Shown here one piece after another: positions 2-59,061 of a DNA stretch of 64,000 nt. The DNA is from a virus (lineage: Duplodnaviria > Caudoviricetes). A program made the position numbers and the translations under genes. The stretch covers positions 1 to 64,000 of IMG/VR virus record IMGVR_UViG_2974602649_000001; one strand, given 5' to 3'. The notes beneath the pieces are model-generated. The model saw nothing but the letters and a program-made list of their open reading frames with translations. It was not told the origin of the DNA and ran no database searches. Positions within the stretch are counted from its first letter, which is position 1. Each line of letters starts with the position of its first letter.

Positions 2-433
2 TGTTTTGTAATAACGAAGGCGTCGGTCGGGAATAAGTCTCGACCAAAACCTTTCTACTATAGTGCTCAAGCTGCTGTTGAGATTAGGGAGGAGTTCATT
101 GTTGACTCACTAATGGGTAAGTATGGTGGACATAAGACCAGAAAGGAGCCTAAGAACGAAAAGCACTCTGTCACGTATCGGTGGAAGATTACCGGCCCAA
201 GACTAGGGGATTTCTGTAAGGATGTGTTACCATCCCTTCTGATTAAGAGGAAACAAGCGGAAACAGTACTTAGCTTTTTAAAGATACGGGAAAATGATAC
301 CACCAATGCTGTAACAGACAGTCAGCGTCTTGAGCAAGAACACTACAGGGGAATTATTATGGAATTGAATACTAAAGGTGTAGGGGATATTCAACATCGC
401 CAATTGATTGCTGGTAACGTTAAGGAGGGTTGA
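2..433 (+). CDS. LAGLIDADG-type homing endonuclease, C-terminal part (5' end outside window)
   Basis: Frame is open from nt 2 (CFVITKAS...YYSAQAAVEI...KYGG...YRWKITG...VLPSLLIKRKQAE); YRW-x and PxLxxKxxQA motifs are typical of single-domain LAGLIDADG enzymes. Confidence 0.75.
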   Translation, partial: CFVITKASVGNKSRPKPFYYSAQAAVEIREEFIVDSLMGKYGGHKTRKEPKNEKHSVTYRWKITGPRLGDFCKDVLPSLLIKRKQAETVLSFLKIRENDTTNAVTDSQRLEQEHYRGIIMELNTKGVGDIQHRQLIAGNVKEG

Positions 434-5422: not shown

Positions 5423-6043
5423 ATGACTCGTGAAGAATTGGAAAAACAAAAGATCCTTACCCCAGAAATTCTGGCAATGGCACCAAAAGATGCTACACAC
5501 TTCCATCCATACAACGATGGTTCTGAAGTAGGTGGCGGGTCGTGGTGTGCTGCATTCTTCCACAAGAATGTGGAGGGTATTGACTTCTTCAGCTACGGTG
5601 AAGACTTCGGCTGGCGTGCTCACACTGACTTCGGTTCGTGCCCAATGAGATTCAATCGACTGATTCCAATCAATCGTGAGGAGAAGGTTGACCCTGTAGT
5701 TGCTGAAGTGGTTGCACAATCGTTTGACAACATTGACTTCGACTCATACCCTCTGCCAGAATGGGCATTGTGTGAGAACAAGCACAAGGTTCTTGTCCCG
5801 GGTACGCAACTGGCAACTAAAGATGGTCGTCACACTGGTAACGCTCACATCATCCGAACTCACACTGCTGACTGGGATAGTGAAGTTCGTGTTTACCAAT
5901 GCTTGACAGATGCGGGCAACAAGATTAATATGCTGGAATCTGAACTACGCCACCAGTTCTACATCGGTACATTCATCAGTCACGTTGATGATGTGCTTGA
6001 CAAATTTGATCGTCAAAACCTGTTCTTTAAGGAGCCTAAATAA
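5423..6043 (+). CDS. hypothetical protein
   Basis: 206 aa ORF with AAGGAG RBS. Confidence 0.75.
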   Translation: MTREELEKQKILTPEILAMAPKDATHFHPYNDGSEVGGGSWCAAFFHKNVEGIDFFSYGEDFGWRAHTDFGSCPMRFNRLIPINREEKVDPVVAEVVAQSFDNIDFDSYPLPEWALCENKHKVLVPGTQLATKDGRHTGNAHIIRTHTADWDSEVRVYQCLTDAGNKINMLESELRHQFYIGTFISHVDDVLDKFDRQNLFFKEPK

Positions 6044-15070: not shown

Positions 15071-15200
15071 ACACTAAAGCCCCTTAATTGGGGCTTTTTT
15101 GCGTCTGTAGAAAAGTGAAAATAAGTTGTTGACAAGGTAAACGGATCCTGTAGAATGGGCGTCAAGAAAGGGGAAATGTTTCCTCTAAGGAGAAACGCAA

Positions 15201-15374
15201 ATGAACATTCAAGCACGCATTGACTACCTTACCGAAATGCTGGAATCGGCTAAGTATGAGGCAAACGTCAATGTTAACCCCGCTAGAATTGCCTATGAAT
15301 TCTCCGACTTGGTTCGCAACCTAGAGGAGGCAATTGCCACTCTTGAGCATATCAAAGAACTCAAAGCCAAGTAA
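15201..15374 (+). CDS. early hypothetical protein (57 aa)
   Basis: AAGGAG RBS after promoter 15129. Confidence 0.65.
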   Translation: MNIQARIDYLTEMLESAKYEANVNVNPARIAYEFSDLVRNLEEAIATLEHIKELKAK

Positions 15375-15421
15375 TGACAAGCCCCTTAATTGGGGCTAAG
15401 TCAGTAGAAGAGAACTAACAT

Positions 15422-15437
15422 TGTTCCACATGGAACA
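15422..15437. promoter_or_regulatory. parS-like site 1
   Basis: TGTTCCACATGGAACA, one mismatch to the parS palindrome TGTTCCACGTGGAACA; intergenic. Confidence 0.7.
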
Positions 15438-15566
15438 ATCCAAACCAAGGAGGCACCATGGATAAGCAACTGCGCGACATTTTGATTAATGCACTCATTG
15501 CAAACGCTGTAGTTGTCCTGTATGCTATGGTGCATTACCTGAAACCAATCCTCTGGAGTGCTGTAC

Positions 15567-15875
15567 ATGCTTACTAAAGAAATGAAATCGTTCCTTTCTG
15601 ACTGGCTTACGTGGGTAAACATCGGTGCCCCTATTCACGATGTTTTTGAACAGAACGGTCTCTGTTCGAACTTTGACCGCTGGTCAAGCAAACAAGGACT
15701 TGATTTAACTACTTTCGCAAATGGTATCAAGTCCATGAAGCTGGTATTTATCAATGAAGGGCTTGATAGAGAGTTTCCGTTTGATGGTCACGCGGGGAAC
15801 TACCTTGAGGCATTGAAAAGTGCCAGTTTCACAAAGAACCAAATGCGGGTTGACTGGGTGAGAAATCACCTGTAA
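15567..15875 (+). CDS. early hypothetical protein
   Basis: GGAG RBS. Confidence 0.65.
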   Translation: MLTKEMKSFLSDWLTWVNIGAPIHDVFEQNGLCSNFDRWSSKQGLDLTTFANGIKSMKLVFINEGLDREFPFDGHAGNYLEALKSASFTKNQMRVDWVRNHL

Positions 15876-15876
15876 G

Positions 15877-16197
15877 ATGCGAACTGTCAAAGCGACAAGG
15901 CGACCGCTACAGCAAAGCCTGAGACGTAAAGAGGATTGGAGGACCATCCTACGGTCCCCCGAGCCGCTTTCTAGCGCTGATACGCTGGATGCTAGAGCGC
16001 AGGCTATTGATGACTGTAAGTACGCTCTAAAGCTAAATGCGGGACTTTCAAGCTATGCAGCGCTGTGGAATCACTTCGCTATGTGGCTGTACAACAATGA
16101 TGAAATAGTTGTTGACACACACCCTGATCATGCGTATTATCTGGCTATCAAAGAGATTCGGGAAAAGTGGCAAACGTCACAATGTCTTTTGAGGTGA
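15877..16197 (+). CDS. early hypothetical protein
   Basis: ORF track, abuts previous stop. Confidence 0.55.
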   Translation: MRTVKATRRPLQQSLRRKEDWRTILRSPEPLSSADTLDARAQAIDDCKYALKLNAGLSSYAALWNHFAMWLYNNDEIVVDTHPDHAYYLAIKEIREKWQTSQCLLR

Positions 16198-16747
16198 GTA
16201 TGAAAAACATTACACGTTATGAATTCAAACACATTTCAGTTAATGGTGATCCAGTAGCGTGGTTTGTCTTCTATGATGACGATGGGCAACTTGCTCGGGT
16301 TGTGTACACACGGGAAGAGGCTGCCCAATATGAACGAATGGCGTACACTGTCCACCCCGTGTTTGGTGACCCTCAAAATGCGTGAACGCTGGGCAACAAA
16401 AGTTCAAAACGAGTGTGAGACCGCTGGTTTCACATTCACCAAACGAGACGATAACGGGCATTGGGAATGCAAGGACGGTGGCAAGGTTCTGTTTCAATCC
16501 CGTAGCTTAGGTGATGTTCTCCGAAAAGTCGGGAACGCCTTGGAAATTCCAAACTAAGGAGTAACTTGTGATTTATATCATTTTTGCAAATATTCTGGTC
16601 TTCATCATGCTGGCCTTCGCGTGGTCGAGTAATGGGTTAACAAACGTCCTCATTAAAACCATTCTGACCATCCTAGTCGTGATGAACGCGACAATTGCAG
16701 GTGTTGAACTGGGCTTTCTCCCTTCACCTAATTAAGGAGTAATTACA

Positions 16748-16969
16748 ATGTACGAATGCACCCAACACGAAGAACTGAAATCTAAATTTGCAGAAGCCTA
16801 TTACAAGGGGGTCAATGAACCCCTTTCAAAGGAGGAAGACGAACAGCTAAGGACTGAATTCAGAGAACTAGAGGACTCATTAATGGGTGCGATGCCTGAG
16901 AAAGAGTTTCAAGAATTCTATCAGCTAGTACACAATGCTGCATGGGGAAACTCATGTTGGGAACCATAG
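16748..16969 (+). CDS. early hypothetical protein (acidic)
   Basis: AAGGAG RBS. Confidence 0.65.
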   Translation: MYECTQHEELKSKFAEAYYKGVNEPLSKEEDEQLRTEFRELEDSLMGAMPEKEFQEFYQLVHNAAWGNSCWEP

Positions 16970-17302
16970 CCCCTTAATCGGGGCTTTTCTTTATCTGAAA
17001 TTCGTGTATAATGCTTTCCATGGTGTGATTTTCAGCACGAGACAAACACGAATGGTGGGTGTCATTCCCAAGTGGTTATAACAAATTCATTTCTTATTCC
17101 AAAATGATTGTTTACAACGTTTTCAGTTGGCGTATAATGACCACATCAAGACAGGACACACAGTCAAGTCAAAACAAGGAGCGACACCATGCAAGCAATC
17201 AAAGACACCCTCATTTTCCTCGGTTGCTGTGGCATTGTCATCCTTGGTATCTGCGCTCCTTTCCTCATTGTTGACGCACTCCATTACTTTGGGAACTAAC
17301 TC

Positions 17303-17677
17303 ATGACTACTTGGAAACCTACATCTGAACAATCCCGTGAAATCCGCGACTACGCCAAAATGCGTGCCGGTACTGGCTGGGTCAAGTTGGAACTGGGCGA
17401 AAAGGTAAACACAAACCTTGACGCTTGTGCCCGAGGTGCTGTATTCTACAGCCCTAACGTGATGTTGTTCACTGACGACATTCACAACGAAGAAAGTAGC
17501 TATGACTTGGCTGATTTAATCCAGTGGGATGAGTTCCGCAAGAAAGGTGTAGAATTGACTGACGATGGCTGTGCATATCTTGACTTTTATGTGTATGACC
17601 GTGATGGTCTGAATTGCAACATTGCAGTTAGCGTCATGGTTGACGGTAAAGAATCTATTATCCTTTGCGGAGGCTAA
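17303..17677 (+). CDS. early hypothetical protein
   Basis: 124 aa ORF. Confidence 0.7.
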   Translation: MTTWKPTSEQSREIRDYAKMRAGTGWVKLELGEKVNTNLDACARGAVFYSPNVMLFTDDIHNEESSYDLADLIQWDEFRKKGVELTDDGCAYLDFYVYDRDGLNCNIAVSVMVDGKESIILCGG

Positions 17678-17787
17678 TCTACCTTACTGTTGAAAAGTTT
17701 TAAAATAAGGGTTGACACCTTACCCTAAAGTGATAGAATGAACCACATAGAGAGGCGAAACGCCTCAGTCATTAGAGGTAAGGCGTC

Positions 17788-18003
17788 ATGAAAACTATTA
17801 CTTTTGCTGTTCTGATGGTAGTTGGTATCGTTGCTGGTATGAACACATTTGGTCGTGCTGCAATCAATGACTACAACAGTGCAAAGGTTGCAGAAGAGTA
17901 TACACAACGCAAAGCTACCCAACTGGCAGAAGACATTAAAGCTTGTGCGTCTGGTAAAACCACTCTGATTATGGTTGCTGGCAAATTTTGCCACAAAGGT
18001 TAA
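17788..18003 (+). CDS. early secreted/membrane-anchored protein
   Basis: signal-like N-terminus; GAGGT RBS after promoter 17712. Confidence 0.65.
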   Translation: MKTITFAVLMVVGIVAGMNTFGRAAINDYNSAKVAEEYTQRKATQLAEDIKACASGKTTLIMVAGKFCHKG

Positions 18004-18310
18004 TCTTATGAAAATTCAAGTAAAACCCTCACATGTCAAGCGTCGCATGTCGCTTCAATACTCACTTTGGTTACAGGAAAACAAAGGTAAGATATTCACA
18101 GCCACGCTGCATAATATCAACTATTACAAAATCACTGATAGTGATGCACCAATGAAATTGGTTCACATATACGATGCAATTGAAATTGCCCCTTAAATGG
18201 GGCTTTCTTTTGTCTGGCGTTTGTGTATAATGACAGCATACGCTGGGATAGCGTTTCTAAGGTGCGAAGCTGGGCACGAAATAAGCACCGGAGGAGCCTG
18301 AGATTTATGT

Positions 18311-18344
18311 TGGCATGATTCTTGTATTAGCAAAGAGCGTGCCA
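18311..18344. promoter_or_regulatory. second head-to-head pair of sigma54 motifs
   Basis: + TGGCATGATTCTTGTA (18311-18326); - TGGCACGCTCTTTGCT (18344-18329); 2 bp gap; inverted copy of 8491-8546. Confidence 0.65.
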
Positions 18345-18453
18345 GAAAAAAATATTCAAAATAATTGAAAATAGTTGTTGACCTGTTCTGTGATCGGCGT
18401 ATAATTGAACACATCAAGAGGCAACACACACACACACTTAGGAGCGACACACT

Positions 18454-18654
18454 ATGAACCCAGCAATCGCAACCATCCTGATGACCGCTATCGAAGAGTT
18501 CAAAAACGTTAAGCGCAATAAGTCTGGATCGGTTAACGAGACTTCCCGGTTTGCCATCCACAAGCGCGCTACCCGTGCAATTGTTGCCTTGGGCGAAACC
18601 TATGACGATGCCTTCGACATGGTTGCCGAGCTTTCCAAGAAATATGCTGTGTAA
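18454..18654 (+). CDS. early hypothetical protein
   Basis: AGGAG RBS after promoter 18378. Confidence 0.7.
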   Translation: MNPAIATILMTAIEEFKNVKRNKSGSVNETSRFAIHKRATRAIVALGETYDDAFDMVAELSKKYAV

Positions 18655-18747
18655 ATAGTTCAAAATAAGTGTTGACGGGTATTCTGCTTCTCGGTAGAAT
18701 ACCCACATCAAGACAAGAAACACCAACTACACACTAAGGAGCACAAC

Positions 18748-19206
18748 ATGAACGTAATGGCCAAAGCACACAAAGCAGCTAAAACCGCTAAAGCACTGGG
18801 CTCCACCATCGCGTATCGTGAACTGTTCCGTGTTGCCCTCAAGCAAGCCCACAAAGAGTACAAAGCCATGCAAATCGATCCAATGGAAGCCTTGAAACTT
18901 GACACCATCGCTAAGTTTGAAAAACGCTTGAATGAACTGTCTGAACTGCTCAAGGTTAAAGGTGTAGAAGATCAATACATCGTAACCGTTGAAAACATGG
19001 CTGTAGACTTCAACGCTAAAGCCCGCATGCCTTTCTCTGGTATCGAAGGTGCTACAAAGTTCGATAGCAAAGAACATGCCGAACTCGAAGCTAAACGATT
19101 GAAGAACGGTAACAAAGTTGGTGGTGTTGCTGTACGCCTTGACCATCAAATTGAGTTTGAAATGCAAAAACTCTGCCAACTCATCAATGAAATTAAATCG
19201 AACTAA
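18748..19206 (+). CDS. early hypothetical protein
   Basis: AAGGAG RBS after promoter 18672. Confidence 0.75.
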   Translation: MNVMAKAHKAAKTAKALGSTIAYRELFRVALKQAHKEYKAMQIDPMEALKLDTIAKFEKRLNELSELLKVKGVEDQYIVTVENMAVDFNAKARMPFSGIEGATKFDSKEHAELEAKRLKNGNKVGGVAVRLDHQIEFEMQKLCQLINEIKSN

Positions 19207-19271
19207 TGGTTGCAAGGGGCATCTGTAGTTGATACAATGCCTCTACACAAACAAAGGCAGGAGTTGGCTAA

Positions 19272-19460
19272 ATGGCAAAGCGCAGAATCCACACCTATAG
19301 CAACAATGGCAAGAAAGCTGATGTTTACCGTAACAGTGACTTTGAAGAGTATGAGGTGAGATTCTCGGTAGAGGGTGAAGACTTGCCAGATGCCGACTAT
19401 TTCACCAATGACAAGCAGGATGCCATTGAAACCGCAAACCGCTGGATTAATGAGGAGTAA
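19272..19460 (+). CDS. early hypothetical protein
   Basis: AGGAG RBS after promoter 19210. Confidence 0.7.
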   Translation: MAKRRIHTYSNNGKKADVYRNSDFEEYEVRFSVEGEDLPDADYFTNDKQDAIETANRWINEE

Positions 19461-19788
19461 TCAAAATGATTCTCACCATGCACTACAAATGTAACTTGTG
19501 CTGTCAGTGGTTCATCTACTGTAATTGCACATCCAGATACTGGCCCAAATAGCCGTCACACATTCGCCCAGGCACATCAAGTGCTCTGGGTTTTGTGCAT
19601 TCTTTTGAAAATAAAGCTTGCTTTACATACTCACCCATGTATAATGAAACCCATAGACAGGAAGACAGGTTCACAACGAACCACCCTAGTCTCCCATAAG
19701 GCTTTCTAAGCCACTCTAAGCGCTAGGGTATCCAAAGCCACACCCTTGCTCTAAAACCCTCTCAAATCGCACCGTAGGAGCTTTAAAC

Positions 19789-20016
19789 ATGTTGTTCAAC
19801 ATTGACATGTCTGTCACTGTAGATGCTGAAATTGAAAAGGGCTGCAAATCCCGCATTGCACACCTTTGGGATGAAAACGGTAATGACTTGTCCTGCCGTC
19901 TCGGTGTACAACGTACAATCAACGTCAAAGCGGCATGCTCTTATCTGGTGGTGAACCAAAGCGCTGTTAGTGTTCTGACAGAATGTGGTGTTACTGTACG
20001 TCGCGGTAAGGCATAA
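19789..20016 (+). CDS. early hypothetical protein
   Basis: AGGAG RBS. Confidence 0.65.
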   Translation: MLFNIDMSVTVDAEIEKGCKSRIAHLWDENGNDLSCRLGVQRTINVKAACSYLVVNQSAVSVLTECGVTVRRGKA

Positions 20017-20202
20017 GGAGAAACCATGCCGGACGATCTAGACATTGATCAAGAACACGAGTTATCCCTACTATCCTCACTGGTTCAAGTTGGCATAGTA
20101 ATTACTTCACTTCTCTGGTTATTCTCCCAAAGCCCCTCATTGTAGGGGCTTTTCTTTGTTTGTGATTTGGCAAAATCACTACTGAAATATTTACCTCACC
20201 CC

Positions 20203-20232
20203 TTGACAAACCAGTGAATCGATTGCTACACT
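20203..20232 (+). promoter_or_regulatory. sigma70 promoter facing the non-coding palindrome array
   Basis: TTGACA-18bp-TACACT with extended TG. Confidence 0.55.
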
Positions 20233-20514
20233 AAAGCTACATGCGACGAAGGAAGCATGTATGTATTATCTATATGTATACCTTATTGTATGCGTAGCAT
20301 ACGACACTACCCCTCCTCATGTGCATAGCACATATCATGCCATCCTCATAAGAAAGCAGAACAATAGATGACCACATAAGGTCATCATGCTTTTGCCTTT
20401 GACGTACTGCAATACTACCCATGTGCAAAGCACATAAAGAACAGTTGCAGTACAGATACCTTATCAGAGACTAATACCCCGTAGGCAACGCCTACAAATA
20501 CCCCTTCCCTCATG

Positions 20515-20530
20515 TGTTCCACATGGAACA
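20515..20530. promoter_or_regulatory. parS-like site 2
   Basis: TGTTCCACATGGAACA. Confidence 0.7.
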
Positions 20531-20734
20531 TAGTCCTATACAAGCCTTATACTCGTTGTGTGTGAAACACACCAATGCTTAGAACTTCGCGGCATTGCCG
20601 CAAATACCCCTCTCACAAAGACACCTTTTCCCTAACAATTCAGTTCACGGGCAAGGCTGGCATATGGTACATATGGCTAAGCCGCGCTATCTTGCGATAG
20701 TCAAGGAATATTTATTAAATCACTCTGACTACAG

Positions 20735-20750
20735 TGTTCCATGTGGAACA
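20735..20750. promoter_or_regulatory. parS-like site 3 (inverted)
   Basis: TGTTCCATGTGGAACA, reverse complement of sites 1 and 2. Confidence 0.7.
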
Positions 20751-20941
20751 ATTCATAATTAATCACCCATATCAATACTTCACGGGCAATAGTTACAATC
20801 AATTAGAGAAATCATGTGGCTCATGTCATACTATGCACTTAGTAGGAGAACGCCCCGCAACGGGGTTGCAATCCATGCCCTCACTCGCCTACTGATTACC
20901 TACCCATACCGATCACACCGCCCTCAGGCAGGGGATAAGCG

Positions 20942-20969
20942 GTGTCCTATAATCTGCATTATGTTAAAT
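20942..20969 (+). other. dif-like XerC/XerD recombination site
   Basis: GTGTCCTATAA-TCTGCA-TTATGTTAAAT: 11-6-11 geometry, XerD arm identical to the gammaproteobacterial dif arm, XerC arm ends in ATAA. Confidence 0.8.
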
Positions 20970-21290
20970 TGACGTATGCGTAAAGGAGGCAATCGCTTAG
21001 CAAGTCCCATGCCAATACACCTTCCTTTTCAAATAATAAATCGGTTGACTGGTCTCACGGATTTTGATATTCTAGAGAGGGCCGGGGTATGCCCAAAGTC
21101 CGGGGCATTAAACCCACATACGCAATCTCCTTTGGGATGGAGTACCCACATGCTCAATGACGAGGGTTGCAGGGATTTTGGATTTGTGGGAGAATGGTAT
21201 TGCTGGGAAATCGACTTTCCAAAATAGGGGGAATGGGGTTTTCAGGGGATTCACTTTTCTCTAAGTCTGTGATTGATAAATCACAAGCAA

Positions 21291-21358
21291 AGAAAAGCCC
21301 ACCGATTAAGGTGGGCACACTCAGTCAAGTGCTGGGCAGTCTCACCGATTAAGGTGAG
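21291..21358 (-). terminator. terminator for minus-strand operon, with duplicated hairpin
   Basis: AAAA-GCCCACC-GATTAA-GGTGGGC, then CTCACC-GATTAA-GGTGAG. Confidence 0.75.
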
Positions 21359-43547: not shown

Positions 43548-43622
43548 TCCGGGTTAGCTCAGTGGTAGAGCAGAGTCTTGATAAGGCTTTGGTCGGTGGT
43601 TCGAATCCATCACCCGGAACCA
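43548..43622 (+). tRNA. tRNA-Ile(GAT)
   Basis: cloverleaf, loop TT-GAT-AA, TTCGAAT, encoded CCA. Confidence 0.92.
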
Positions 43623-43627
43623 AATAT

Positions 43628-43701
43628 GGGAAAATAGCTAATTTGGTAGAAGCTGGGGGCGGAAACCCCTGTAGGTCTTGGTTCGATTCCAAGTTTTCCC
43701 C
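43628..43701 (+). tRNA. atypical/degenerate tRNA, probably Phe(GAA)-derived
   Basis: acceptor GGGAAAA/TTTTCCC and T arm intact; anticodon arm GGGGGCGGAAACCCCT lacks U33; no CCA. Confidence 0.6.
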
Positions 43702-43710
43702 ACGTATTAT

Positions 43711-43786
43711 TCCTCGGTAGCTCAGTTGGTAGAGCGCCTGACTGTTAATCAGGTGGTCATTGGTTCGAGTCCAGTCCGGGGAGCCA
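43711..43786 (+). tRNA. tRNA-Asn(GTT)
   Basis: canonical cloverleaf, CT-GTT-AA, CCA. Confidence 0.95.
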
Positions 43787-43790
43787 ATTT

Positions 43791-43866
43791 AGGTTACTAG
43801 CTCAATTGGAAGAGCAGCGGATTCCAAATCCGCCGGTTCGGGGTTCGAATCCTCGGTAACCTGCCA
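43791..43866 (+). tRNA. tRNA-Trp(CCA)
   Basis: cloverleaf, TT-CCA-AA, CCA end. Confidence 0.93.
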
Positions 43867-43938
43867 AAGTCAGATGGTCTTTGTTAGACTGTTAAAACTC
43901 ACCACCCTCCTAAGGTGGTGATCCATTCAGGAGATGAA

Positions 43939-44124
43939 ATGAAGCGCGAAGTGAAAGATTTGATGCGTGTTTATCAGTGTTGTCCCGGTCATGATGATTG
44001 GCCTTGTGACACATACAAAAACAGGCGTTCAAAGAAAGCTCGTTCACGAGACATTGCCAAAGAGCATCGTTATGTAAGGCGAGTAAAAAAGCAAAACTTG
44101 AAAAAGGAGATTGAAAATGACTAA
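43939..44124 (+). CDS. small basic protein in tRNA cluster
   Basis: AGGAG RBS; CCPGHD motif, Arg/Lys-rich. Confidence 0.7.
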   Translation: MKREVKDLMRVYQCCPGHDDWPCDTYKNRRSKKARSRDIAKEHRYVRRVKKQNLKKEIEND

Positions 44125-44283
44125 GTTTTATGATGCAACAAAAGAACACACCAAGTTTGAAAAGTCTGAAGGTAAATCGAAGGCTCACCCAAACAAAGGT
44201 CTGACTTCCCGCAACCCATACTCGGGTAAGTCGAAGTCGTAAGTCGCTCAAGGGCAGCGAGTTAGAAATGCCCACAAGAATAC

Positions 44284-44359
44284 GCTGTCATAGCTCAACG
44301 GTAGCAGCAACTGTTTTGTAATCAGTAGGTTGGGAGTTCAAATCTCTCTGACAGCACCA
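44284..44359 (+). tRNA. tRNA-Thr(TGT)
   Basis: GCTGTCA/TGACAGC acceptor, TT-TGT-AA, CCA. Confidence 0.9.
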
Positions 44360-44363
44360 ATAA

Positions 44364-44439
44364 CTCCTCTTAGCTCAGTTGGTAGAGTGCCCTGTTTGGA
44401 ACGGGGAAGTCGAAGGTTCGAGTCCTTCAGGGGTGACCA
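44364..44439 (+). tRNA. tRNA-Pro(TGG)
   Basis: cloverleaf, TT-TGG-AA, CCA; one acceptor-stem mismatch. Confidence 0.88.
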
Positions 44440-58100: not shown

Positions 58101-59061
58101 TGTTGGTATGGGTTCCCGCCAATCCGGTGTAGCAAACCAGCAGTACGACAATGACTTGTGGTACGCAAAAGAAAAACGCAGACTGTCTGAGGCGTTAACT
58201 GCCAACAAGATCGATGACAATGAGTACAAGGAAAAGTACGCTACTCTGAAAGCAGCACACAGTGAGATGACTGATGTCATCATTGAAAATGACCGAAAGG
58301 TTCAGGAAGCAAACGCTGACTGGACAAACGGGTTCACTGCTTCAATTCAGAACGCACAAGATGCTGGTATGAACTTTGCTGGTAATATGCAAACGGCATT
58401 GACTGGAGCATTTACATCAGCAGGTCAAGCATTTGCAACATTCGTCACTACCGGTAAGTTGAGCTTCCAAGACCTCACACTTAGCATCATCAGTAACATG
58501 GCTCAGATTGCCGCCCAACAAGCTGCAATGGGTGCTCTGGGTGCATTGTTCGGTGCTATTGGTGGAGGCATCGGGGGTGGTGGTAATGGATTGGCAGTAG
58601 GTTCGGCTGGTTACACTAGCTCTAACTTGGGTGCATCTGCTGCTGGTTATTCTAGCAAGTACTTTGCAAAAGGTGGAGCGTTTACTGGTGGTACTCAGTA
58701 CTTCGCAAACGGTGGAGCTTTCACAAACGGTATTGTATCGTCTGCAACATCTTTCGGGATGGCTAACGGAAACCGGGGAGTGATGGGTGAAGCTGGTCCA
58801 GAGGCAGTTGTCCCACTCACAAGAACCAGCAATGGTGACTTGGGTGTTAGGATGGTAGGTAATGATGGTTCTGGTGGAAACACCAACATCGTAAACGTAG
58901 TTGTAAACGTATCGGATGACGGCACCCAAACATCTACGGATGGTGGAGGTGACTGGAACTCGTTTGGTTCTCAACTGGGTCAATTCGTTGACCAGCGTGT
59001 TTACACTATCATCAACAAAGAAACACGAGGTGGTGGCTCCCTTCAGCCTCAAAAGCAGTAA
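55087..59061 (+). CDS. tail tape measure protein (lambda family)
   Basis: 1324 aa helical; PAQITDI..SL.GGQ.P..VL.QQGGQ.KD.FGG; MGEAGPEA. Confidence 0.95.
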   Translation: MPTIAELQVKVDSTQLKDGKQAFNEFADSAKNASDAVNKFKGGSAGGGIAPEAETSKVKNLSASIDDQTRKLQNLATQRKALEASGMKTTDINEYTRLNSIIDANIALVERQGTAVSRLTSLEDKDLQKKTQKAEQEARIQENIVKATERKDLVITNASAREQRSIEQTINGLDRQIKAQNDYNKAIQNLSKARALSGMSGPDDSRTTMSGAEFDSYTKLAAAQRDAKLAVMDYSAEMDRVRSKLDTYTATLSRTDRAEVEHKRSIEVLNEARRLGIVTQDEYDAKLARFNERLESVKKGNEGAAISTERLSKQMNQVTGRYDAVTKAMNNQTVAEQILTQANERGLISTEDMTKALQGYSAAVEKAKAKVAGPDIGEEFERGLDDVLAYRTELRNLELQEKRLQDMRSSGRELTDTQQRDLDRATTALQKNREALEKRIRTGENAGMTYKQEQAALRGMPAQITDIVVSLQGGQAPLTVLLQQGGQIKDMFGGVGAAIRGMATTLVGMINPFTVAAAVMGTLAIAAYQGGNELNEFNKALIQTRGVSGASANDFTAMRTELDGITGTASQAAQALTLMESSGKIASGSFVEIGEAAILMQKATGQAMSETIEDFASLGKDPVDAAIRLDEKYKFLTGSVIAQAAALEEQGRKQEAVTLLQGRMAEAATEAAKTMIEEAGWIEQAWNGVKGAVSDTWDALRGIGRESTAQSELDEVLAKQKEIYDLARGNEAALKRNSKYQELEAERRVLQARVDTEKSLADYQAKREIDRQKDVAYTNQMANASLSNLATLDKVQAKEEALKKVQREQAEQRERVKRLGRDLSADEVRNMDRALAAAKQELKDAQEAQAKKGGRGAIDTRELTEVKSNLKNITAEYDGYYKNITALGKANVVNAEATYRSQMAVLQAQEKAVSDSFGKTISELERLRGAKGNTAAQNISLDNQMTKAEDERVRAVEAIQNKQEQLTIAFQGDMEKRRASIDSYTDAIKEQVRALREQGDRAVAGVGMGSRQSGVANQQYDNDLWYAKEKRRLSEALTANKIDDNEYKEKYATLKAAHSEMTDVIIENDRKVQEANADWTNGFTASIQNAQDAGMNFAGNMQTALTGAFTSAGQAFATFVTTGKLSFQDLTLSIISNMAQIAAQQAAMGALGALFGAIGGGIGGGGNGLAVGSAGYTSSNLGASAAGYSSKYFAKGGAFTGGTQYFANGGAFTNGIVSSATSFGMANGNRGVMGEAGPEAVVPLTRTSNGDLGVRMVGNDGSGGNTNIVNVVVNVSDDGTQTSTDGGGDWNSFGSQLGQFVDQRVYTIINKETRGGGSLQPQKQ

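Follow-up and report, generated by a model that had tools for sequence, protein, structure and literature searches.

Why would an apparently virulent phage that encodes no partition proteins carry several copies of the chromosomal centromere of its presumed host? This question is raised by IMG/VR virus record IMGVR_UViG_2974602649_000001, a 103,218-bp phage genome whose first 64 kb form the window analyzed here. The window contains three copies of a 16-mer that resembles parS, the chromosomal binding site of the partition protein ParB. After nucleating at parS, ParB closes into a CTP clamp that spreads along the DNA; the protein is moved by ParA and loads SMC. We propose, with a probability of about 0.45, that a lineage of virulent Pseudomonas phages lacking ParB and ParA has kept host-type parS, and that host ParB marks the phage DNA for segregation when infection stalls. 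In this proposal, binding to the variant core found in the studied phage and the purpose of the sites are the two parts that we infer.

Three parS-like sites in non-coding phage DNA

The 16-mer TGTTCCACATGGAACA has exactly three matches in the window, two on the plus strand and one on the minus strand (sites 1 to 3; Table 1). It is a near-palindrome with the arms TGTTCC and GGAACA around ACAT. All three sites have the 16-bp palindrome of chromosomal-type parS (TGTTNCACGTGNAACA; Pseudomonas form TGTTCCACGTGGAACA), agreeing with the Pseudomonas form at 15 of 16 bases, and the sole mismatch always lies in the central CG. None of the predicted genes overlaps any of the sites. The 16-mer did not occur in 100 dinucleotide-preserving shuffles, and when up to one mismatch was allowed across the whole genome, only the same three copies were recovered. 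The next-best parS matches elsewhere in the genome had 4 mismatches each; together with the empty shuffles, this rules out a chance origin.

A first-pass annotation of this DNA had described three exact, non-coding copies, unlikely to be due to chance and differing from Pseudomonas parS at one central base, and our positions, shuffles, gene calls and genome-wide scan bear this out. Two of its terms need qualification. The third copy had been called inverted; a minus-strand match does exist, but the motif is a near-palindrome, so that the copy differs only by a central TG in place of CA. Similarly, the copies are identical in that they share one 16-mer, but they need not be duplicates of one another, each being canonical parS altered by one transition within the central CpG.

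Site 1 occupies a spacer bounded by a stop codon at 15374 and by the Shine-Dalgarno sequence and ATG (15458) of a 39-amino acid open reading frame, 18 nt downstream of the site. Upstream, a 57-amino acid gene and the hairpin that follows it, AGCCCCTTAATTGGGGCT (window 15145-15408), are 89% identical to positions 58453-58718 of the P. putida phage Amme-3. This homology ends at GTCAGTAG, 12 nt before the parS-bearing segment, which places site 1 at a mosaic junction. Sites 2 and 3 both lie in a gap between convergent gene blocks, where a codon-usage gene caller found no gene.

Canonical parS at matching places in related phages

All DNA-level relatives of the phage recovered in a sensitive search were Pseudomonas phages (101/101 records). 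By large-terminase identity, the closest were the IMG/VR contigs G003 (79%) and G001 (78%), followed by Pseudomonas phage vB_PpS_SYP (SYP; 70%), a third IMG/VR contig, G002 (69%), and vB_PsaM_M1 (M1, OP714164.2; 65%). Orthologous sites in SYP, G001 and G003 match canonical parS at 16/16 bases. SYP has canonical-type parS at six positions, five of them unique, all within the homologous counterpart of window 13-21 kb, and a control with the reversed pattern gave no sites in this comparison. The count rises from five to six because the last 351 bp of the SYP record (OQ183418.1) repeat the first 351 bp exactly, and this repeat holds one parS together with a dif-like recombination site; the repetition is either a genuine short terminal repeat or the product of overlap in the assembly. 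G001 carries a perfect parS in the gap and a one-mismatch parS in the early region, and the single parS of G003, also perfect, lies in the gap.

Alignment of the gap DNA with known phages by BLAST found nothing useful, and we therefore read conservation as short footprints, using a short-word comparison that returned colinear conserved islands. Site 3 with its flanks, GTGTTCCATGTGGAACAAT, agrees with the G001 gap parS, GTGTTCCACGTGGAACAAT, at 18 of 19 bases. For site 2 with its flank, agreement with the G003 gap parS is 17/18, and the 3' flank of site 1, ATCCAA, is found again at the SYP site 963-978. Clusters of parS are also present in more distant Pseudomonas phages of similar broad architecture: Amme-3 has three sites, one of them in a convergent gap, and UAVern and XD2 have four each. 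The three relatives searched from other hosts (Edwardsiella, E. coli and Acinetobacter) had no parS sites. Exact scans of IMG/VR for the variant and the canonical 16-mer gave mostly single matches among the matches listed and were uninformative. Our literature search found no paper on host parS in Pseudomonas phages. By sequence comparison, the motif is a recurrent, host-matched and dispensable feature rather than a chance palindrome.

Searches of the phage genome at permissive thresholds, with controls that worked, gave no match to ParB (ParB_N, TIGR00180 and HTH_ParB), to ParA-type AAA_31 or to a tyrosine recombinase. A phage-encoded ParB was rejected as the reader of the sites, all three ParB models being absent. 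ParB would have to be supplied by the host; pseudomonads, the host genus deduced from relatives, have ParAB and TGTTCCACGTGGAACA-type parS. Several host-type parS copies in a phage without ParB and ParA is the combination known from the Bacillus phage phi29. The first-pass reading, in which the phage hijacks or titrates host ParB through parS, is supported in part: the identification of the motif as parS is well supported by the canonical TGTTCCACGTGGAACA at matching places in the closest relatives, by the missing phage ParB and by the restriction of DNA-level relatives to Pseudomonas phages.

In SYP, Amme-3 and UAVern, which are otherwise different phages, canonical parS directly flanks a gene for a 485-amino acid DndB/DGQHR-domain protein (PF14072) that is 76-83% identical across the three. 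The gene and its parS may represent a mobile cassette or a ParB-controlled gene. We take the DGQHR protein to have a ParB/Srx-like fold. It was rejected as a universal reader of the sites, since the studied phage, G001 and G003 lack it; the gene is absent from G002 as well.

A dif-like site beside parS in the convergent gap

The gap that holds sites 2 and 3 also contains a candidate XerC/XerD site, located 130-230 bp beyond parS in the studied phage, SYP and G001 (~190-230 bp in the studied phage and G001). Its XerD arm is identical to that of Pseudomonas dif at 11 of 11 bases, its XerC arm ends in ATAA and its spacer is 6 bp long, which together give it the form of a dif site. Pseudomonas dif itself was matched exactly and once per genome in 45 species, of which about half belong to Pseudomonas. 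Sites of like form occur in the same gap of SYP, G001 and M1, the last of which has the dif-like site although it carries no parS. The central hexamers of the four phages all differ (TCTGCA, CGTACA, TAGGTA and TGGTCA), and none equals the host hexamer TGTATA. This argues against integration at dif and in favor of recombination that is specific to each phage. Because no recombinase was found in the phage, the dif-like site would need host XerCD.

The order of elements is common to the studied phage, SYP and G001: terminator of the plus-strand block, inward promoter, hairpins, parS, dif-like site, repeats and conserved island, and terminator of the minus-strand block. At the place equivalent to the inward promoter, SYP has a TTGACA/TATAAT promoter. 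In G003, Amme-3 and UAVern, the gap has the hairpins and parS but lacks a dif-like site. These features make the gap a likely cis-acting hub. The iteron-like repeats and the 21-nt island are candidates for origin or packaging signals. With a putative origin, a centromere and a multimer-resolution site, the region resembles the set of three cis-acting elements of a low-copy replicon for which the host would supply all trans factors.

A run of short perfect hairpins, such as GTATGC-GTA-GCATAC, occupies window 20240-20510, and equivalents are present in the gaps of SYP, G001, G003, Amme-3 and UAVern. GC-GTA-GC and GC-TAC-GC triloops and loops resembling UNCG are common among them, and both orientations are represented. 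They could form a structured RNA or act as origin signals for priming on single-stranded DNA. A search of 14.5-22.5 kb against Rfam gave nothing above threshold.

Absence of CACGTG from the phage genome and from its parS sites

Canonical parS contains CACGTG, which a transition at the central CpG turns into CACATG or CATGTG, two sequences that are reverse complements of each other. The genome of the studied phage contains no CACGTG at all, compared with expectations of 5.5 from a Markov model and ~20 from base composition, whereas its parS-carrying close relatives SYP, G001 and G003 contain 24, 17 and 8 copies. Other 6-bp palindromes are missing as well (GAGCTC, AGGCCT, TCCGGA and CCGCGG, each expected 4-6 times), and G002 similarly lacks CACGTG and GAGCTC. 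The absence of several 6-bp palindromes is a pattern typical of restriction avoidance. Since CACGTG is absent here and present in relatives, the central G-to-A change looks like restriction-site avoidance. A further CACGTG, which overlaps the parS flank in SYP and G001 (CACGTGTTCC...), has likewise been lost from the studied phage. At orthologous coding positions, only 4 of 40 sites aligned, the genomes being too diverged for CACGTG loss to be traced. We read the three sites as canonical parS from which CACGTG has been removed, in each case by the smallest possible change, and a genome-wide purge of CACGTG is the most likely reason, one that the first-pass annotation had missed.

The chromosomes of P. 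putida, P. entomophila and P. psychrophila have 3-4 sites with at most one mismatch per 5-6 Mb, mostly clustered. One parS of the P. psychrophila oriC cluster, GGTTCCACATGGAACA (G006:C62:174210-174225), has the ACAT core and stands 630 bp from a perfect parS; its orthologs in P. putida and P. entomophila have ACGT. The idea that the host's chromosomal parS itself carries the ACAT core was unsupported, as the 14-mer occurred once each in 12 of 151 Pseudomonas genomes, versus 7 of 151 for the reversed control. In P. aeruginosa, parS2 and parS3 equal TGTTCCACGTGGAACA, and parS1 and parS4 end in C (Jecz et al. 2015, PMC4368675). ParB binding was reported at all ten imperfect parS sites of this species, and the ACAT core is present in parS5 of strain PAO1 (PMC4368675).

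A possible role of host ParB in stalled infections

If host ParB reads the sites, a sequence of events can be outlined. After entry, ParB would nucleate at parS both within the origin-like gap and in the early region and would thereby mark the phage DNA as chromosome- or plasmid-like cargo for ParA-driven positioning and segregation. Host XerCD, acting at the adjoining dif-like site, would resolve dimers or circularize the genome. The benefit would arise when lytic growth stalls, in the form of a carrier or pseudolysogenic state, and would be the counterpart, in a non-sporing host, of the Spo0J-dependent entrapment of phi29 in spores. Amme-3 infection is unproductive or strongly prolonged in P. 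putida proficient in guanosine tetraphosphate (ppGpp) (PMC12814882), a result that is compatible with a stalled carrier state without demonstrating one.

Several observations weigh against ParB-dependent maintenance. ParB binding at the phage sites is a prediction from their sequence, and the core reads CACATG or CATGTG, not CACGTG, at all three. An intact CACGTG core was concluded to be important for ParB binding in P. aeruginosa (Jecz 2015, PMC4368675), where parS5 and parS10, which have the same G-to-A change plus one further mismatch each, are among the three weakest sites (PMC4368675). In a plasmid test, sites with two mismatches silenced neighboring genes 2-5-fold, compared with 10^4-fold for perfect sites, and none of six two-mismatch sites could support segregation (PMC4368675). 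Taken together, the reported importance of the core and the weakness of parS5 and parS10 suggest that the phage sites may bind ParB poorly or fail to load clamps. Moreover, six Pseudomonas phages (M1, G002, VCM, UNO-G1W1, Boevelstad and B8) had no site, a patchy distribution that makes parS a dispensable trait. The phage is uncultured, and Pseudomonas is its probable host genus, as deduced from relatives alone. SYP forms clear plaques on P. plecoglossicida (PMC10580904), and from these plaques and the missing integrase, the studied phage is probably lytic. No repressor or other dormancy gene was identified, though not every gene was screened for repressors or serine recombinases.

Among the alternatives, the one that survives best is that host ParB is bound for regulation or sabotage. 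ParB would either provide timed silencing of the early block and the gap promoter or be titrated away from oriC and its partners by hundreds of phage copies. The sites do cluster in or beside the block of small early genes and ~290 bp downstream of the strong promoter, ParB bound at parS silences neighboring genes 10^4-fold in the plasmid test (PMC4368675), and the DndB/DGQHR gene is flanked by parS in an operator-like manner in three relatives. However, the conserved partner of parS is the dif-like site in the origin-like hub, which points to replicon maintenance over gene control. Half-sites (GTTCCAC and GTTTCAC) are bound by ParB of P. aeruginosa as well, with no dominant consequence for transcription nearby. 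Titration, for its part, would bring no obvious benefit in a short lytic cycle. We consider regulation or sabotage unlikely.

The altered core could instead mark the sites of the studied phage as decaying relics. Selection against CACGTG would then have prevailed, the altered core would no longer load ParB usefully, and the 16-mers would still be present only because little time has passed since the change. In keeping with such decay, the core reportedly matters for binding (PMC4368675), G002 has lost CACGTG and is without any parS, and several relatives dispense with parS. Decay fits less well with the preservation of 15/16 bases and the immediate flanks at all three sites amid intergenic DNA too diverged to align, with the presence at each site of only the single transition needed to remove CACGTG, or with the occurrence of the same core in an oriC-cluster parS of P. 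psychrophila. On balance, the relic explanation seems improbable.

We give slightly less credence still to a third alternative, that the motif is the operator of a phage DNA-binding protein outside the ParB family, such as the DndB/DGQHR protein of some relatives, and that its identity with host parS is mimicry or coincidence. Room for such a protein exists, as most of the ~216 predicted genes have no known function, and the DGQHR protein adjoins parS in SYP, Amme-3 and UAVern. On the other hand, the DndB-like gene is missing from the studied phage, G001 and G003, all of which keep the sites, and no ParB-type helix-turn-helix is present. Phages with very different gene contents repeatedly match the host centromere at 16/16 bases, but none of the three searched relatives from other genera has a site. 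Finally, a role as nucleic-acid hairpins in RNA stability, RNA processing or replication priming is very improbable: each site can form a stem of 6-8 bp closed by a 4-nt loop (-7.5 to -9.5 kcal/mol) and the gap holds other short hairpins, but the folds have modest z-scores (-1.2 to -2.6) and lack a U tract, the other gap hairpins vary freely between phages while the parS one is fixed to the exact host sequence, and such a role would leave the confinement to Pseudomonas phages unexplained.

Comparison with known systems and implications

The principle behind the proposed segregation by host ParB is already known from phi29. As summarized in PMC2731898, Meijer et al. 2005 showed that this virulent Bacillus phage has five host parS sites and that, under suppression of lytic growth, Spo0J brings the phage genome into the prespore. 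The same summary (PMC2731898) describes phi29 and Nf in terms that resemble the present case, namely virulent phages without a ParB of their own that carry several host chromosomal parS sites read by host Spo0J/ParB. Unlike these phages, the studied phage has a presumed host that is Gram-negative and non-sporing, its sites stand beside a dif-like XerCD site in an origin-like gap, and its palindrome core is altered. Its genome of ~100 kb also contrasts with the 19-kb protein-primed genome of phi29. What is new is the conservation of parS across a clade of Pseudomonas phages, its association with a dif-like site that is likewise conserved within an origin-like hub, and a core variant apparently shaped by restriction avoidance.

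The chromosomal counterparts, P. aeruginosa parS1-parS10 and the oriC-proximal clusters of pseudomonads, have the same 16-mer, matched at 15/16 bases here and at 16/16 in the relatives. Unlike them, the phage sites are phage-borne and occur at ~50-100 times the chromosomal density. P1 parABS and N15 sopABC also place centromere sites near replication functions on a phage genome, likely for stable episome inheritance. These phages, however, encode their own ParA and ParB and their own centromere, whereas the studied phage encodes neither protein and copies the host site. Plasmid cer/psi sites and integrative mobile elements exploiting Xer (IMEX) such as CTXphi are familiar examples of mobile elements with a 28-bp XerC/XerD site that rely on host recombinases. 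The candidate site described here differs in being located on a large tailed virulent phage and in having a central hexamer other than that of host dif.

A wider version of our proposal is that a clade of 90-107-kb, "strictly lytic" Pseudomonas phages carries a complete host-run maintenance hub, in which host parS and a dif-like site of the phage's own accompany an origin-like region, and persists like an episome in slow-growing or stringent cells through host ParABS and XerCD, without partition, recombinase or repressor genes of its own, its parS having been shaped by conflict with host restriction. We regard this wider version as rather unlikely as a whole. If ParB does load, the phi29 strategy would extend to non-sporing Gram-negative bacteria, and XerCD acting at the dif-like site would be a second borrowed function. 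Such a mechanism would explain in concrete molecular terms how "lytic" Pseudomonas phages can show carrier states and pseudolysogeny, which matter for phage ecology and, through persistence and incomplete killing, for phage therapy. The CACGTG-free variant offers a natural experiment on how much of parS is needed by ParB, and SYP, Amme-3 and XD2 are cultured, which makes the idea directly testable. Mutants in parAB, parS and xer are available for P. putida KT2440 and P. aeruginosa PAO1.

Other features of the locus and genome

The positions of the sites, of the remaining elements of the gap and of the comparison features in other phages are listed in Table 1.

Table 1 Features of the parS-bearing region (window coordinates unless another record is named)
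Feature	Position	Strand	Remarks
parS-like site 1	15422-15437	+	Intergenic spacer; extended palindrome ATTGTTCCACATGGAACAAT spans 15420-15439
Intrinsic terminator ending the plus-strand block	20129-20152	+	21/23 bases kept in SYP
Non-coding gap	20160-21290		~1.1 kb between convergent + and - gene blocks; from gene calls and repeats
Sigma70-like promoter	20203-20232	+	TTGACA-18-TACACT, extended TG; reads into the gap
parS-like site 2	20515-20530	+	In the convergent non-coding gap; central CpG is CA on the + strand
parS-like site 3	20735-20750	-	In the convergent non-coding gap; central CpG is TG on the + strand; ortholog of the G001 gap parS
dif-like XerC/XerD site	20942-20969	+	GTGTCCTATAA-TCTGCA-TTATGTTAAAT
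Iteron-like repeats	~21051-21240		GGATTTT / GGGATTTTG / GGGGAATGG; flank the island, between the dif-like site and the minus-strand block terminator
Conserved island	21096-21116		AAGTCCGGGGCATTAAACCCA; 20/21 bases identical to G001
Intrinsic terminator ending the minus-strand block	21297-21316	-	
dif-like site, SYP	SYP record 134-161	-	Same gap
dif-like site, G001	G001 5656-5683		Same gap
dif-like site, M1	OP714164.2 16961-16988		Same gap
DndB/DGQHR gene, SYP	L132:7671-9125	-	
DndB/DGQHR gene, Amme-3	L171:4994-6457	+	
DndB/DGQHR gene, UAVern	L172:5449-6912	-	

Elsewhere, the genome encodes ribonucleotide reductase, DNA ligase and NAD-salvage enzymes, together with a tRNA cluster. The cluster comprises six tRNAs (Ile, Asn, Trp, Thr, Pro) at window 43548-44439, and for the tRNA at 43628-43701, ARAGORN called an irregular two-base anticodon.

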